Notes: generated from the sequence alone by a model not told the origin. 64,000 bases of DNA from Candidatus Goldiibacteriota bacterium (GCA_016937715.1 JAFGWA010000050.1:9311-73310); one strand, 5' to 3'. Shown: positions 28,479-31,760, counted from the first letter of the stretch. Numbers and translations are program-made.

Positions 28479-28564
28479 TTTTCATCTCCGGCGTTTTCGC
28501 GCAAAAACAGTTTTAAACCGCTCTATTACAATGCGCCCGCGCCGTAAACGTTGCAATAAAAAAC

Positions 28565-28685
28565 CGAGGGACGGAGGGACAGATGCACAGATGGACGGAA
28601 GGATATTAAAACAGATGCTTGAACGCTTGGATGTTTGGAGGCTTGATAAAGACAGTTACAAAATACAAATCAAAAACCACGGGTT
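28565..28685 (+). repeat. Composite intergenic repeat, copy 1: octamer array plus conserved core ATGCTTGAACGCTTGGATGTTTGGAGGCTTGATAAAGACAGTTACAAAATACAAATCAAA
   Basis: Highly similar to the copies at 29085-29172 and 30806-30900. Confidence 0.6.
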
Positions 28686-28754
28686 GAAAAAAATAACATC
28701 ATGTATAAAAACCGTAAATTTTAGCCGTTCTCCCGGGCGGGATATTAGAAACTT

Positions 28755-28955
28755 TTACTCATTTTCCAATACCATGTAACGACCGGTTTTACTTTTTTTC
28801 AGGTAGTGTGTGTTTTCGCATATATTACATTTAATTTTTTTTGGGTCTTCTTCGGTCTCAATTATCCACTCCCTTTTCCCGCATGAACACACAAACAGGC
28901 TTTGAAACCTGTTATCCTCCCAGATTCTCCCAAAAATTCTTTCCTTTGCCACCAT
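28755..28955 (-). CDS. Small zinc-ribbon protein (CxC...CxxC). Start reassigned to MVAKER, preceded by GGGAGA.
   Basis: FVCSCGK...KCNICEN. 66 aa. Confidence 0.35.
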   Translation of the reverse strand: MVAKERIFGRIWEDNRFQSLFVCSCGKREWIIETEEDPKKIKCNICENTHYLKKSKTGRYMVLENE

Positions 28956-29084
28956 TTTTTTCTCCCTTCTGTCCCCCTGCATCATTAAGCTATGTTCGTA
29001 ATGATCAGGACCCAATACAAATATATATCTTTGTAATTATTTTGTCAAGTAATTATTTTGAAGAAACGATGGATGGTGAAGCAG

Positions 29085-29172
29085 ATGGTTGGACGCTTGG
29101 ATGTTTGGAGGCTTGGTAAAAACAATTACAAAAGACAAATCAAAGACCGCGGGCTGAAGACCCGCGACTACC
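29085..29172 (+). repeat. Composite intergenic repeat, copy 2 (core plus hairpin GACCGCGGGCTGAAGACCCGCGACTACCA)
   Basis: atggttggacgcttggatgtttggaggcttggtaaaaacaattacaaaagacaaatcaaagaccgcgggctgaagacccgcg. Confidence 0.6.
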
Positions 29173-29374
29173 AGAGCATAATTTTTCAGGATGAAAATTT
29201 GCAGTGGCACTATAAAATTTACTTGTAAAAATTAGGCGGCATGCCGAAATAACAGGACATTTCTATTTTGCGGATTAGGGGGCGTTATCAGTTTTTGTTT
29301 AAAGCCTAATCAACCTGATTGAGTTCAGGCCTTAAAATTGAACTTTTTATTATCCGGACTGAAATTATTAAGAT

Positions 29375-30601
29375 TTATTCAATACCTTTCAATATTTCAA
29401 GCATTCCAATCAGGCCTGTTATTTTTACATTTTGCGTTATATGAGACATTTGTGCGCCGTCCCCAAGAGTCACAACATGCGCCGTGGACCAGGCTACCTT
29501 TTTATTCTTCGCTATAACCAACTCAATATTCTTTGCAGATTCAGAACCTACATTTATTCCCGATTTGAACTCAAACAAATGAAACTTACCTTTTTCTTCC
29601 ACCAAAAGGTCTATTTCCGGCCCTTTATCAGCCCTGTAAAAATGCATATTGCTTTTGTAAAACGAAGTATTCAGCAGTTTCTTTTTTGCCTCTGAGACAC
29701 AGTAATTCTCAAATATCTGCCCCGCCATGGCATGAGAATATATGTCATTCTCCGTTCTGATGTTGTTCACTCTGCAGACCAGGCCTGTGTCATAAAAGTA
29801 TATTTTTGGTGTTTTTACAAGCCTTGTCCTGACATTGGCGTGATATGGGTGCAGATAGAATATAATACCGCTTGCTTCAAGTATAGAAAGCCATTTTTTT
29901 ATTGTACTGGCAGATACACCGCAATCATTAGAAACAGCCGCCATATTCAGCAGCTGTCCCGGCCTTGAAGCAAGTATCCTTATAAATTTATCGTAAGTTT
30001 CAAGATTCCCTACATTGTAAAGACTGCGCACATCCCTGTCTATATATGTTGTCAGGTAACTTTCATACCATCCCGGGATATCCATAGTTTTGTCCAAAAC
30101 AGGCTCCGGGTATGTTCCTCTGGTGCATGCAAATTCAAACAAAAGGCGTGTGGAATCAGCCCCGGTAAAAACAGCCAGTTCGCCCGAACTAAGTGTATTC
30201 ATATGCAGTATCCCCACGCGGCCGGCAAGAGACTCGGTGAAACTTTTCATAAGTAAAAAATTCTGAGAACCGGTAATTACAAACCTTCCTTTTATTTCAC
30301 GTTCATCATAACGGGCATTGTCAATTTCAATTTTAATGTATGACATTACAGCAGGTGCGTATTGTAACTCATCAATAATTACTTTTTCAGGCAGTTTTTT
30401 AACAAATAAAGCCGGATCATTTATTGCCATGGCTCTTTGCCTGGTGTCATCCAGAGAAACATAGGCATATTCTTTACCAAGCACTTCCCTTAATACGGTT
30501 GTTTTCCCGCATTGCCGCGGCCCGGTAAGGGAAACCGCGGGAAAAGCGTTGATATACTTCTTAATACGGCTTTCAATATCTCTTTTTATGTATGTTTTCA
30601 T
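29375..30601 (-). CDS. AAA-family ATPase with C-terminal DUF4143 domain
   Basis: Walker A GPRQCGKTT. Typical AAA_14 plus DUF4143 architecture, 408 aa. Confidence 0.8.
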   Translation of the reverse strand: MKTYIKRDIESRIKKYINAFPAVSLTGPRQCGKTTVLREVLGKEYAYVSLDDTRQRAMAINDPALFVKKLPEKVIIDELQYAPAVMSYIKIEIDNARYDEREIKGRFVITGSQNFLLMKSFTESLAGRVGILHMNTLSSGELAVFTGADSTRLLFEFACTRGTYPEPVLDKTMDIPGWYESYLTTYIDRDVRSLYNVGNLETYDKFIRILASRPGQLLNMAAVSNDCGVSASTIKKWLSILEASGIIFYLHPYHANVRTRLVKTPKIYFYDTGLVCRVNNIRTENDIYSHAMAGQIFENYCVSEAKKKLLNTSFYKSNMHFYRADKGPEIDLLVEEKGKFHLFEFKSGINVGSESAKNIELVIAKNKKVAWSTAHVVTLGDGAQMSHITQNVKITGLIGMLEILKGIE

Positions 30602-30634
30602 AACTTAATCATATATCAAGTAATTAATATTGTC

Positions 30635-30673
30635 AATTCGCAAATCCATTGTAACAAAGTGGAATTGCGAATT
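30635..30673. promoter_or_regulatory. 14-bp inverted repeat AATTCGCAAATCCA-11 bp-TGGAATTGCGAATT (13/14 match) 35 bp upstream of the AAA/DUF4143 ATPase gene; candidate operator
   Basis: Read directly. Confidence 0.3.
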
Positions 30674-30786
30674 TTCTATTTTTACGCAATAAAATTAGGT
30701 GTTTTTTAGGTTGTATTTTATGTGTATTAAGAGAATTACGTTGACATGCTGAATCAACAGGACAATTCTATTTTGCAGAATCAGTA

Positions 30787-30900
30787 AAGGAGGTGGGGAA
30801 AACAGATGCTTGGACGCTTAGATGTTTGGAGGCTTGGTAAAGGCAGTTACAAAATACAAATCAAAGACCGCGGGCATAAAAACCCGCGTCTACCACAACA
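30787..30900 (+). repeat. Composite intergenic repeat, copy 3 (RBS-like AAGGAGGTGGGG, core, hairpin GACCGCGGGCATAAAAACCCGCGTCTACCA)
   Basis: Same core as copies 1 and 2. Contains a small ORF (30806..30916). Confidence 0.6.
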
Positions 30901-30916
30901 AGACAACGGCAGTTAA
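30806..30916 (+). other. Candidate 36-aa small ORF inside the repeat (MLGRLDVWRLGKGSYKIQIKDRGHKNPRLPQQDNGS), preceded by a strong RBS. Homologous reading frames exist in copies 1 and 2.
   Basis: AAGGAGGTGGGG followed 7 nt later by ATG. Copies at 28611 and 29085 encode ML(E/G)RLDVWRL(D/G)K(D/N)(S/N)YK(I/R)QIK in the equivalent frame. Most differences are nonsynonymous G/A transitions, so a coding status is unproven. Confidence 0.2.
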
Positions 30917-30924
30917 CAGGAATT

Positions 30925-31434
30925 TTAAAATTTTGAAACTGTTTCCCTCGCCCATTTTTCTATCTTTGCCCAGTCCCTATAATCCCCCTCCGGCACGCCT
31001 TTTTTAAAAGCCGGCATAAGGGTTAAAAGGCTCATGGGAAAACGCAGAGTTTTAAAATCCACCTTACCCGCAAACAGCCCTTCGCTTACAGGCTTAACAA
31101 CGTTCCTTACCGGGTCCAGATAGCCGGCTGCGGTCTTTCTGCTATCAGGCGTGTCTTTCTGCATTGTCAGGCAGACAAGAAAATAACCCACCGGAACCTT
31201 TAAAAGCGCGTCTTTGCGCGCGGAAACAAATTTCACGACAGAGCCTTTTATTTTACCCATAACAACCGCGCTGCCGATGATAACACCGTCGTAGCCTTCA
31301 ATTGATTTAATTTTATTCACGGGCTTCACATCGGCGTGCATTCCTTTTTCGGAAAGTTTCTTGCCGATAAACTCCGCGGTTTCAGCCGTTGACCCCGAAA
31401 AAGTACCGTAAGCCACAAGTATTTTCTTTGCCAT
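30925..31434 (-). CDS. Flavodoxin-family protein. Start moved to MAKKILVAYGT, preceded by RBS GGAGGA.
   Basis: LVAYGTFSGSTAETAEFIG flavodoxin FMN-loop signature. The upstream 29 codons of the long ORF are a translation of the octamer repeat. Confidence 0.8.
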   Translation of the reverse strand: MAKKILVAYGTFSGSTAETAEFIGKKLSEKGMHADVKPVNKIKSIEGYDGVIIGSAVVMGKIKGSVVKFVSARKDALLKVPVGYFLVCLTMQKDTPDSRKTAAGYLDPVRNVVKPVSEGLFAGKVDFKTLRFPMSLLTLMPAFKKGVPEGDYRDWAKIEKWARETVSKF

Positions 31435-31460
31435 GATAGTATCCTCCATTAAGAATATCC

Positions 31461-31550
31461 GAGAGACGGATGCACAGATGCACAGATGCACAGAGGGACG
31501 GTAAAAACATCCCCAAATCAACTACCGCGGGCTAAAGACCCGCGTCTACC
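31461..31550 (+). repeat. Composite intergenic repeat, copy 4: (GATGCACA)x3 and GAGGGACG octamers plus hairpin ACCGCGGGCTAAAGACCCGCGTCTACCA
   Basis: gagagacggatgcacagatgcacagatgcacagagggacgg...actaccgcgggctaaagacccgcgtctaccaatt. Confidence 0.6.
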
Positions 31551-31760
31551 AATTCCAAAAATTCTATCCCGTAAACGTTTAACCCATATCCCATAAATAG
31601 AACATTTTTAAGACAAGAGCCGCGCCCTAAAAAGACGCGCCTACCAGTACATAAACCAAAAAACGCGCGGATGACAAACCAATTCAAGTATACGGACAGC
31701 GCGGGAGAGCTGTCCCTACAAATACAAAAAATATACAACGCAGATAAAAAACATAAAATT

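Follow-up and report, generated by a model that had tools for sequence, protein, structure and literature searches.

Known REP systems and the hairpin of this lineage

Repetitive extragenic palindromes (REPs) are small GTAG-tagged GC hairpins recognised by RAYT, a dedicated transposase-like enzyme, and represent an already known sort of selfish or domesticated DNA. The definition used in the literature requires a GTAG tag and a stem of 6–13 bp (PMC3733652), and cleavage by RAYT requires the GTAG (PMC8266576). The closest described systems, E. coli TnpAREP (4ER8), the SMAGs of Stenotrophomonas and the REPs of Pseudomonas, have in common with the repeats reported here a 5′ GTAG and a short GC-rich stem-loop, tens to hundreds of intergenic copies with several REP classes per genome, a RAYT bracketed by inverted cognate REPs, and a location chiefly between co-directional or convergent genes. 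The known hosts are Proteobacteria, whereas the present repeats belong to an uncultivated lineage whose MAG labels range from ‘bacterium’ to Aerophobetes or Goldbacteria-like.

We analysed a 64-kb stretch of DNA from this lineage (the window), together with sequences from a sister genome that shows 82–86% nucleotide identity to it and has four assemblies with a RAYT locus. The intergenic GC hairpin of the window is a GTAG-tagged REP. On the minus strand, which is the gene-sense strand, it reads GGTAG plus CGCGGG-loop-CCCGCG, with a 6-bp GC stem; the hairpin and its CTACCA have, on that strand, the shape of the ssDNA substrate of REP-associated tyrosine transposases (RAYT/TnpAREP). The window contains four exact matches to the pattern, whereas 0.00 are expected from shuffles. 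For copies 2 to 4, both the MFE and the centroid DNA fold contain the CGCGGG/CCCGCG stem (6–7 bp, with a loop of 5–7 nt), and CTAC lies 1 nt past the stem in all intact copies of this class, designated class A. A search of the whole window with the Rfam 15 covariance models produced zero matches at gathering score, the sole match at E ≤ 1 being a chance mir-367 hit on an unrelated palindrome.

Composite repeats of the window

As originally predicted, four composite repeats, all on the plus strand, occupy successive intergenic spaces, one in each, and every one of their modules is unexpected by chance. The repeats do not represent the leader of a single gene family: downstream of them lie genes for a GH9 cellulase, an AAA_14/DUF4143 ATPase and a flavodoxin, and a small Zn-ribbon-like ORF. 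Between copies, blastn aligns the core with 88–92% identity across 73–77 nt (E from 1e-18 to 1e-25).

Copy 1 (28564–28688) begins with an array of CC plus four 8-bp units of the GAGGGACG/GATGCACA type (28564–28596; TRF period 8, regex census and alignment) and continues with the ‘core’ array GATGCTTG AACGCTTG GATGTTTG GAGGCTTG (28614–28645; TRF period 8/16, and 88–92% identity to copies 2 and 3 by blastn) and with an A-rich REP leader and a decayed hairpin (28646–28688; sequence, alignment and DNA fold). Just the decayed left arm of the latter, CCACGGGTTGAA (28677–28688), is left, the right arm and the CTAC tail having gone, and DNA folding of this copy returned no hairpin; because of this decay, copy 1 falls outside the definition of a REP stem-loop. 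Copy 2 (29060/29084–29173) contains three degenerate units followed by GATGGTTG GACGCTTG GATGTTTG GAGGCTTG (29060–29116; TRF and alignment), the A-rich leader GTAAAAACAATTACAAAAGACAAATCAAAGA (29117–29146; alignment) and a class A REP, CCGCGGGCTGAAGACCCGCG plus ACTACCA, with its GTAG head on the minus strand (29147–29173; pattern census and DNA fold), which scored as terminator-like on that strand.

Copy 3 (30805–30895) is formed by the core array GATGCTTG GACGCTTA GATGTTTG GAGGCTTG (30805–30836; TRF, census and alignment), an A-rich leader (30837–30867; alignment) and a class A REP with the loop variant CATAAAAA plus TCTACCA (30868–30895), whose position is kept in the sister genome (L001:6702–6728). 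In copy 4 (31459–31551), an array of CC GAGAGACG, three GATGCACA units and GAGGGACG (31459–31500; TRF with 100% period 8, census) precedes a short leader, GTAAAAACATCCCCAAATCAACTA (31501–31524; alignment), in the same short form as in L058, and a class A REP plus TCTACCA (31525–31551; pattern census and DNA fold). The modules thus do not all occur in every copy, as had been proposed: core and intact hairpin are found together only in copies 2 and 3, the hairpin of copy 1 is decayed, and copy 4 joins a GATGCACA array to a hairpin without any core. Two metagenome contigs, as well as the sister genome (L001:3324–3490), carry the composite with its core. Where short-read contigs have the same sequence as the window, they end within the repeats.

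The window contains nine REPs. Two lie in tandem to copy 4, namely a class C REP, CCGCGCCCTAAAAAGACGCGCCTACCA, at 31620–31646 on the plus strand (blastn, census and DNA fold) and, in tandem to it, a class E REP, GGACAGCGCGGGAGAGCTGTCCCTAC, at 31694–31719 on the plus strand (census and DNA fold). The inverted pair announced at 25319–25443 is a true doublet of class A hairpins, at 25340–25366 (minus strand) and 25416–25442 (plus strand), with the GTAG heads outside; the fold of the region 25335–25450 has −37 kcal/mol and a z of −10.2. Of two further pieces thought to be related, the one at 16955–16990 is so as an array only, a lone block of four GAGGGACG/GATGCACA units and then GAAGTAAA (16955–16988, plus strand; TRF and census), and that at 57693–57722 is indeed a REP hairpin (57688–57716, plus strand; blastn and census), placed within a larger mosaic (57550–57850), but of class C, matching 31620–31646. 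A class E-like copy with the tail CTGC is at 37723–37748 on the plus strand (blastn and census).

A second motif was also correctly recognised as repeated, at 29251–29271 and 30756–30776, with 0 occurrences expected by chance. Its two copies, at 29240–29274 (with a AACAGGACATTTCTATTTTGC core, downstream of the AAA/DUF4143 gene) and 30745–30779 (upstream of it), both on the plus strand, form a direct repeat that brackets the AAA gene. The elements do inflate ORF predictions with false N-termini, as suspected: the mechanical ORF 30925–31521 (198 aa) corresponds to a flavodoxin from the ATG at 31434 (169 aa), as in the ortholog L001:6782–7291, and the ORF 55331–57685 has its start at 57490.

REP classes and their arrangement

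In 408 kb of sequence, mostly from the sister genome, there are 107 REPs in five hairpin classes, A to E, with at least 69 in class A and 38 in the others. The stems of these classes are unrelated in sequence, and the GTAG tag (the CTAC end) is the sole part common to all of them. Copies matching the strict pattern are intergenic in 103 of 106 cases. The original prediction is borne out as to the existence of a family, which is dispersed throughout the genome: the hairpin occurs at least 69 times, in 48 sister-genome loci, and its dispersal extends to 63 loci, ca. 45 of them in one MAG. Co-directional genes flank REPs in 59 cases, against 17 with convergent and 7 with divergent ones. The GTAG strand coincides with the G-rich strand in 76 cases versus 23, a bias inseparable from an effect of transcription direction; the window has a GC skew of −0.13, and its minus strand carries 51 of the 60 genes.

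The organisation of the REPs is atypical of classical REPs and REPINs. About half of the 107 (51) are singletons and, among 32 pairs of close neighbours, 24 are arranged head-to-tail, 23 of these between different classes, an arrangement that as a REP dimer is rare in published reports. As against known REPs, which form same-class inverted dimers, these are mostly singletons or mixed-class head-to-tail clusters; they also differ in their 7-nt loop, their conserved A-rich leader of ca. 20 nt and their regular joining to 8-bp arrays. In the REPINs of Pseudomonas and Enterobacteria, two REPs of one class, inverted and with a short spacer between them, form the replicating unit. Such doublets are represented here by 25340–25366/25416–25442 and by three sister-genome pairs, only four pairs among the 107 REPs; the array-armed elements described below likewise fold as long hairpins.

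A REPtron in the sister genome

The ORF at L061:4283–4747 matched the NCBIfam model NF047646 (REP_Tyr_transpos) with 95.1 bits, above the cut-off of 80, and also Pfam Y1_Tnp. Its one match in the PDB was 4ER8, the E. coli TnpAREP, and in the alignment the two share the HUH motif and the catalytic Tyr. Inverted copies of REP A bracket this RAYT gene at 39 and 43 nt, with GTAG outside, and the same configuration is found in four independent assemblies (L061, L064, L065 and L078); an A-rich REP leader adjoins the gene as well. A RAYT between two inverted copies of exactly the hairpin of the window constitutes a REPtron. No RAYT was found in the 64-kb window and, the search of its own genome being confined to that window, the link to RAYT rests on the sister genome. 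The sampled DNA contained a single RAYT for the five REP classes.

Arrays of 8-bp units

What is new is the joining of REPs to 8-base tandem arrays. The core of ca. 70 bp had been taken for an entity of its own, yet TRF resolves it into another array of period 8, of the GATGCTTG type, followed by the A-rich REP leader; its units are GATGCTTG GACGCTTG GATGTTTG GAGGCTTG, after which comes the A-rich linker. The ‘tandem 8-bp units’ and the ‘70-bp core’ are thus one type of module in two flavours. A typical block has about four GAnGnnnn units and terminates in G(A)AGTAAA / GAAGTAAA. We found 61 arrays against ca. 0.1 expected from shuffles, with 3 to 17 units and a mode of four (37 of 61), and period 8 predominates in the TRF output. 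Several degenerate flavours exist, and their sole common feature is GA at the start of the unit.

The arrays are polar. Whichever side of a REP they lie on, it is the 3′ end of their G-rich strand that faces it: when a REP lies within 150 bp, it is 3′ of the G-rich strand in 33 of 34 cases. The remaining 27 of the 61 have no REP inside 150 bp, and arrays and RAYT action may be unrelated. Arrays also border an unclassified structured element of ca. 210 nt. Inverted pairs of arrays have fold z values from −3.4 to −7; in most of the long-hairpin elements the arrays are the arms and a single, asymmetric REP is near the tip.

The BIMEs of E. coli are also intergenic mosaics in which REPs and short conserved motifs are combined modularly, with a module number that varies by locus. 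Their partners, however, are single short motifs between alternating inverted REPs, whereas here period-8 arrays, which come in several flavours and turn one constant end to the REP, take that place, and most REPs are oriented in tandem. The GGGAATC heptamers of Xanthomonas and the GGGGAYT/STRR heptamers of Nostoc are likewise lineage-specific, G-rich intergenic tandem repeats with units of 7–8 nt, vary in length and sequence among close relatives and are at times in inverted pairs; the unit is, nevertheless, 8 nt here versus 7 there, and the arrays are discrete blocks of ca. four units with defined ends and a polar association with REPs.

Gain and loss between strains

Across 6.2 kb, two strains with 96.5% identity differ by two indels only, one of a 46-nt REP unit and the other of a 45-nt array block; the copy-number polymorphism of the 46-nt unit adjoins the RAYT gene. 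At one orthologous site, L058 has a short form and L001 a long one, the latter having as extra parts a 41-nt array of the GATGTTTG type and a 52-nt leader plus REP E. Strain comparisons thus show REP units and array blocks being gained or lost as wholes. These two polymorphisms, together with the turnover of positions, suggest that the modules are mobile.

Interpretation and alternative explanations

The repeats are probably BIME-like mosaic intergenic elements built round a GTAG-tagged REP. RAYT would spread and maintain the REP units by single-strand cleavage and strand transfer during replication, and such action could account for the GTAG strand being, in most cases, the one that is G-rich and gene-sense. 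Arrays on both sides of a REP make the element a long, foldable hairpin and, in the direction of the genes, the hairpin with its T-rich leader likely acts as a terminator or 3′-end stabiliser between independently promoted genes. The original prediction is thus partly supported, having missed the GTAG/CTAC tag, the cognate RAYT and the array nature of the core.

It is unlikely that the repeats are purely functional, non-mobile terminators with insulator or promoter-upstream sequences kept by selection, and that their proximity to RAYT is incidental. Three REPs were indeed called terminator-like on the minus strand, in gene orientation, with a GC stem and a T-rich tail, the elements are mostly downstream of co-directional or convergent genes, and there are separate sigma70-like promoters downstream of the composites, one promoter-like site for each downstream gene. 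Nevertheless, this leaves unexplained the invariant GTAG 5′ of five unrelated stems, the inverted hairpins flanking RAYT in four assemblies and the REP-unit copy-number polymorphism beside it, and the sister-genome tail past the hairpin (CAGTTGATTT) is weakly T-rich. A terminator role is compatible with the REP explanation as a secondary one.

The elements had also been compared to MITEs. Their being classical ones, that is, non-autonomous derivatives of an IS with a DDE transposase, in which the 8-bp arrays are subterminal transposase-binding repeats, would agree with the many sister-genome elements of 150–250 bp that have inverted, flavour-matched arrays at each end and form long hairpins, and with the gain or loss of a 45-nt array block as a whole. 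We consider it quite improbable, because the four window copies have an array on one arm only and no terminal inverted repeats, and show no target-site duplications, 470 kb of sequence yielded no IS whose ends match, arrays of 3 to 17 units are unlike defined TIRs, and the central hairpin was shown to be associated with RAYT instead.

There is very little likelihood that the G-rich strand is itself the product, with GGA-rich or G-quadruplex arrays as protein (e.g., CsrA-type) sponges or G4 regulators and the hairpin as 3′ end. GGA does occur at each unit boundary in most flavours, four GAGGGACG units make G3N5G3N5G3N5G3, four being also the modal array size, and intergenic G-rich heptamer repeats with G4 potential are known from Xanthomonas and Nostoc (PMC4692102). 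However, the flavours GATGCACA, GATAAGCA and GAGCTGCC lack G-runs or GGA, the arrays of the window carry just 2–3 GGG tracts, both array orientations relative to genes occur and Rfam families gave zero matches; moreover, on the plus strand the hairpin is followed by CTACCA and not by a T-tract, so there is no terminator on that strand.

Between the GH9 gene and pgl, the cargo of the sister genome is a different one, made up of HEPN/NTase and Gp49/HTH genes of a toxin-antitoxin-like kind, and the neighbourhood is a variable accessory zone; the impression of cassettes has, therefore, some basis. Yet an integron-like array, with attC-type repeats separating mobile Zn-ribbon, AAA/DUF4143 and flavodoxin cassettes, has almost no chance of being correct and is largely refuted by the genome-wide dispersal of the repeats: set against one same-orientation repeat per intergenic space with small accessory genes between, that differing cargo and the motif 2 direct repeat on either side of the AAA gene, the hairpin and arrays are in more than 45 loci on more than 30 contigs, beside housekeeping genes (msrAB, iPGM, a tRNA), flavodoxin and its downstream REP keep their positions in the sister genome, no integrase is present among the neighbouring genes examined, and there is no attC-like imperfect palindrome, since folding found only the 6-bp hairpin (z −0.75 to −1.3, copies 2 and 3) and no extended palindrome. 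An integron would have attC repeats with R″/L″-L′/R′ boxes at each cassette boundary, confined to the array and with IntI and attI adjacent.

Within the REP explanation, it is conceivable, if rather doubtful, that the period-8 blocks are an undescribed partner of REPs, made or used by the RAYT machinery, in a modular, array-armed and non-autonomous mobile system unlike REPINs and BIMEs. This is suggested by their fixed polarity to the REP, flavour-matching across it, block-wise gain and loss, and flanking of the ca. 210-nt structured element.

Biological significance

REP/RAYT is the best-documented vertically inherited, domesticated mobile DNA in bacteria, and the spread of REPs is still little understood. 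To our knowledge, detailed work on it comes nearly all from Gammaproteobacteria. Because short-read assemblies break at these mosaics and ORF calls gain false N-termini from them, recognising such elements improves the annotation of such MAGs. The lineage offers a compact REPtron, five co-resident head-to-tail REP classes, a polar partnership with 8-bp arrays and clean strain-level gain or loss of single modules, which provide concrete substrates and junctions for studying the choice of cleavage site by RAYT and the unit that is mobilised.

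Four Composite Repeats Fill Successive Intergenic Spaces

Reading of the plus strand at 28300–31800 and repeat finders both revealed the four same-orientation composites that had been described, although the module content of the copies differs. Copies 1 to 4 (28564–28688, 29060–29173, 30805–30895 and 31459–31551) fill four successive spaces between five minus-strand genes: a GH9 cellulase (25536–28478), a cysteine-containing, Zn-ribbon-like ORF of 66–86 aa (28755–28955/29015), an AAA_14/DUF4143 ATPase (29375–30601), a flavodoxin (30925–31434) and 6-phosphogluconolactonase (pgl, 31761–32507), followed by G6PD. 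The conserved core of copies 1–3 is 88–92% identical over 73–77 nt (E 1e-18 to 1e-25), and the hairpin pattern CCGCGGGCNNAANACCCGCGNCTAC has four exact matches in the window versus 0.00 expected. Copy 1 has lost the right arm of the hairpin and the tail; copy 4, which is devoid of the core, aligns with the short form from locus L058, copies 1–3 being long forms. All four copies have only the left array arm, composed of tandem 8-bp units. A scan for tRNA and tmRNA genes found none.

The outlying pieces of the original prediction are all related repeats, namely an array at 16955–16988, an inverted pair of hairpins (25340–25366 and 25416–25442), as proposed, and a hairpin at 57688–57716 that nevertheless belongs to another class, matching 31620–31646. 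The hairpin at 31620–31646 and another at 31694–31719 are of other classes than copy 4, to which they lie in tandem.

The Hairpin Is a GTAG-Type REP

All neighboring genes have the minus strand as their sense strand, and on it the hairpin reads GGTAG-A-CGCGGG-loop-CCCGCG. REPs of the GTAG type are defined by this tetranucleotide preceding a short GC stem-loop (PMC3733652), and GTAG is needed for cleavage by the REP-associated tyrosine transposase, RAYT (PMC8266576). A scan for the hairpin pattern that covered one genome of each species retrieved 63 loci, ca. 45 of them from the single MAG JAKQNO01; viral contigs yielded 0 matches. Since this MAG shows 82–86% identity with the window over syntenic genes, we consider it a sister genome. 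Nearly always, the hairpin is embedded in these loci as AAATCAACTG-hairpin-TCTACCA, and four other hairpin families (CGCACCCTAAAGGGTGCG, CGCGCCTTAAAAGGCGCG, GAGGCGCAACATGTTGCGCCTC and GGACAGCGCGGGAGCGCTGTCC) recur with unrelated stems, each followed by CTAC. We relied on repeated hairpin families because the tetranucleotide following any 6-bp hairpin was uninformative, random coding hairpins having swamped the signal (32/316). The hairpin belongs to the GTAG-REP/RAYT kind, here in an uncultivated lineage.

The labels of MAGs from this lineage disagree (bacterium, Aerophobetes, Firmicutes, Spirochaetes, Cyanobacteria). The contigs of L012 and L047 are identical to the JAKQNO MAG, and L045 and L058 share its repeat modules and partial synteny; these four are filed under Firmicutes ADurb.Bin300, Spirochaetes UR.bin61, Cyanobacteria OH_PDB_112 and 'bacterium', and an identical RAYT carries the label Aerophobetes ADurb.Bin490. 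These conflicts suggest that some public MAGs are mis-binned or mislabeled.

A Cognate RAYT in the Sister Genome

Locus L061 contains a 154-aa ORF between two inverted class A hairpins, situated 39 and 43 nt away with their GTAG heads outside. Its product scores 95.1 bits (cut-off 80) with NCBIfam NF047646, 'REP-associated tyrosine transposase', and also matches Pfam Y1_Tnp. Among solved structures, its only match is E. coli TnpAREP (4ER8), in an alignment covering the HUH motif (PDHMHMIL) and the helix of the catalytic Tyr (HIKYVFENPVRKG). Three more assemblies, independent of the first (L064, L065 and L078), also have a RAYT gene between inverted REPs, and the members of this cluster are 96–98% identical. 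The next relatives reach at most 64% identity and are labeled Goldbacteria, WOR-3, Omnitrophica and the like, several being annotated as RayT; the nearest one outside the cluster is labeled Goldbacteria. A tblastn search with the RAYT found none in the 64-kb window, and the proposed REP–RAYT link is drawn from the sister genome instead of the window's own. Exact look-up returned no record for the window flavodoxin or for the RAYT homolog P0002.

Period-8 Arrays and the Composition of the Core

Period 8 predominated in the tandem-repeat output, with 103 rows versus 33 and 32 for periods 7 and 9. Defining an array as at least three units matching GA.G[GCT][ATC][CT][GAT], we found 61 arrays versus ca. 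0.1 in shuffles, with a modal size of four units (37/61) and a maximum of 17. Among the array flavors are GAGGGACG/GATGCACA, GAAGGTCG and GATGCTTG, besides others (e.g., GATTGGAA, GAGCTGCC and GATAAGCA); GA at the start of the unit is the sole feature common to most flavors, and the arrays end in G(A)AGTAAA. A REP occurred within 150 bp of 34 arrays, and for 33 of them it was situated 3′ of the G-rich strand. Twenty arrays showed the order of the window (array, leader of ca. 30 nt, hairpin, CTAC) and 13 were on the far side (hairpin, CTACCA, 2–7 nt, C-rich array), indicating that arrays face the REP from both sides. Paired arrays are usually of the same flavor, and elements with such pairs form, as ssDNA, a long hairpin over their entire length (z −3.4 to −7).

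The core of ca. 70 bp had been regarded as a separate module; it actually consists of four 8-bp units (GATGCTTG GACGCTTG GATGTTTG GAGGCTTG) and an A-rich stretch. Both REPs that flank the RAYT also have this A-rich leader (AAATACAAAC..CAACTG) on the side facing the gene; the leader hence belongs to the REP unit, so that the core is a GATGCTTG-type array plus the leader. The full composite, including the core, occurs at another locus of the sister genome (L001:3324–3490) and in two metagenome contigs; only these 2 of the 9 loci from a metagenome scan for the core were real composites, the rest being chance coding matches. In one of the two contigs (L068), the composite has an inverted CAAGC array on the other side.

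An origin of the arrays from RAYT CT-cleavage sites at 8-nt spacing is not supported, given that GCTTG and several other flavors do not have a CT per unit on sequence inspection. Neither a G-quadruplex, nor a GGA-motif sponge, nor a ladder of RAYT CT sites fits all flavors.

Distribution and Strand Bias of REPs

In the 408 kb made up of the window and 48 loci from the sister genome, we counted 107 REPs, of classes A (69), D (13), C (10), B (9) and E (6), and 103 of 106 strict-pattern copies were intergenic. Their flanking genes were co-directional in 59 cases, convergent in 17 and divergent in 7, a co-directional/convergent preference being reported for REPs generally. Among the co-directional cases, GTAG was on the gene sense strand in 46 and reversed in 13. 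The GTAG strand was the G-rich strand in 76 cases versus 23; in the window, the GC skew of the plus strand is −0.13 throughout and the minus strand encodes 51 of 60 genes. A lagging-strand template bias is known for Y1-transposase elements (PMC6006769). By inference, the lagging-strand template carries the GTAG form in most cases, an effect inseparable from that of transcription direction.

Half of the REPs were singletons, and 24 of 32 close neighbor pairs were head-to-tail, all but one of these 24 (23/24) joining different classes. Same-class inverted doublets numbered only four, including the window pair at 25340–25442 (predicted fold of −37 kcal/mol, z −10). This organization in singletons, heterologous head-to-tail pairs and few inverted doublets differs from that of classical REPs. 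The mosaic character is like that of E. coli BIMEs.

Module Turnover and the Variable Interval

Two strains with 96.5% identity over 6.2 kb differ by exactly two indels: a 46-nt REP A unit adjoining the RAYT, and a 45-nt block composed of a four-unit array and a short flank. At an orthologous locus with flanks 85–98% identical, the short form of L058 contains three units, CGGTAAAAACA.. and REP A. L001 has two additional pieces, an array of the GATGTTTG type (41 nt) and a 52-nt leader plus REP E. Downstream of the flavodoxin gene, the REP keeps its position in the sister genome, where its array has decayed; upstream of the GH9 gene, the array likewise keeps its place, with other modules after it. 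In the pgl–flavodoxin spacer, the window has REPs of classes E, C and A, and the sister genome has REPs of classes D and A together with a toxin-antitoxin pair. Short-read contigs 100% identical to the window stop inside repeats at 31531, 30828 and 28562, as expected if these are multi-copy in the window's genome too.

In comparisons with L039, L001 and L016, the GH9–pgl interval (25536–31761) is a variable accessory zone. In the window, its cargo includes the Zn-ribbon-like ORF and the DUF4143 ATPase; in the sister genome, it includes GlcNAc 2-epimerase, NTase/HEPN/NTase and Gp49/HTH toxin-antitoxin-like genes. The flavodoxin is the sole gene in common. The AAA/DUF4143 gene was also considered as mobile cargo that REPs bracket and that L030 shares, a proposal rejected because the proteins are only 26% identical.

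The second motif of the original prediction, AACAGGACAWTTCTATTTTGC, indeed has two window copies (29240–29274 and 30745–30779), direct repeats that bracket the AAA/DUF4143 gene. It was found only in the syntenic variable interval; the sister copies (L001:5133–5153 and L016:122–142) bracket a 3-kb segment with NTase/HEPN genes, the flavodoxin and the Gp49/HTH pair. It is a separate local repeat outside the REP system, and may mark the borders of an insertion hotspot.

Other Repeat Elements

An element of ca. 210 nt (window 17055–17262, plus strand) has at least 15 copies in the 408 kb, with 77–97% identity (among others L053:5535–5742 and 5776–5991, L052:6022–6236 and L039:1064–1282, and in L036, L031, L063, L022 and L003). 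It shows a 33-bp closing stem or terminal inverted repeat (ACAGGGRTTGGGTGTGTTTTTTCAG...CTGAAAAAATAYACCCAAGCCCTGT), invariant unpaired blocks (TTGCCAATGAATTAA and GTTTAATGC), six stem pairs with compensatory changes and a consensus fold of −75 kcal/mol, and has no Rfam match even at E ≤ 1. A G-rich 8-mer array almost always follows it, and both are tandemly duplicated in L053. Coding of a 73-aa peptide was rejected, given 1-nt indels among copies; candidate identities of the element are a novel structured RNA and a MITE.

The module TATCCCATAAA(N)TTTTATCCCATATCCCATAGATAAAA contains, as read on the gene strand, direct repeats of ATGGGATA and often adjoins G-rich arrays at their 5′ end (window 31565–31600 and 57520–57552, L001:6745–6775, and L048, L054, L061, L038 and L045). 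Its copy at 57520–57552 is directly upstream of the ribosome-binding site of a copA-like P-type ATPase. A 300-bp mosaic (57550–57850) upstream of the heavy-metal P-type ATPase (start 57490) comprises a GAGGGACAGAGG remnant, GCTTAAnn-type period-8 arrays, the class C REP at 57688–57716 and a TTCCAATC/TTCTAATC array at 57810–57845. Mechanical prediction extended the ATPase ORF by 65 codons through this mosaic, bearing out the earlier remark on false N-termini. A further period-8 family, GCTTATGCTTAATTGCCTATAGCTTAA (window 42213–42273 and 57591–57609, and many sister loci, e.g., L053:7865–7986 and L008:50–182), has invariant TAAGC/GCTTA and, unlike other flavors, no GA at the unit start; it is often situated between inverted G/C arrays.

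Nature and Possible Role of the Composites

The composites are likely RAYT-dependent REP elements with accessory array modules. Classical MITEs, suggested by the MITE-like spacing, are not supported for the window copies, which lack terminal inverted repeats and target-site duplications (inspection of the four copies gave no consistent duplication); in the sister genome, elements armed with arrays leave this reading a small probability. The repeats are dispersed genome-wide and lack attC-like symmetry, which excludes integron-type cassettes. A known RNA family is also excluded, with nothing relevant in Rfam at gathering score for the whole window or at E ≤ 1 for 28450–31800 and 16900–17350; a mir-367 match arose by chance from an inverted repeat at 30621–30687. 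Finally, with unrelated genes downstream of them, the copies are not the 5′ UTR of a multi-copy gene family.

A secondary role of the RAYT-dependent REP elements at transcription-unit boundaries is plausible. Three REPs are terminator-like in the gene direction (a GC stem, then TCTTTGATTTG), and strong predicted sigma70-like promoters, TTGACA-17-TATGAT (30636–30608) and TTGACA-17-TATATT (29048–29020), are situated in unique sequence between a composite and the next gene, placing the composites exactly at these boundaries. The inverted repeat of 23 nt at 30621–30687 (AATATTGTCAATTCGCAAATCCA / TGGAATTGCGAATTTTCTATTTT) overlaps the predicted AAA/DUF4143 promoter and is probably an operator.

Three features go beyond the content of the REP survey consulted: REPs are regularly joined, with a fixed polarity, to discrete blocks of period-8 arrays; REP clusters are predominantly heterologous and head-to-tail; and gain and loss proceed by blocks. 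As likely RAYT-dependent REP elements, the composites would be selfish or domesticated DNA rather than gene-specific regulators.
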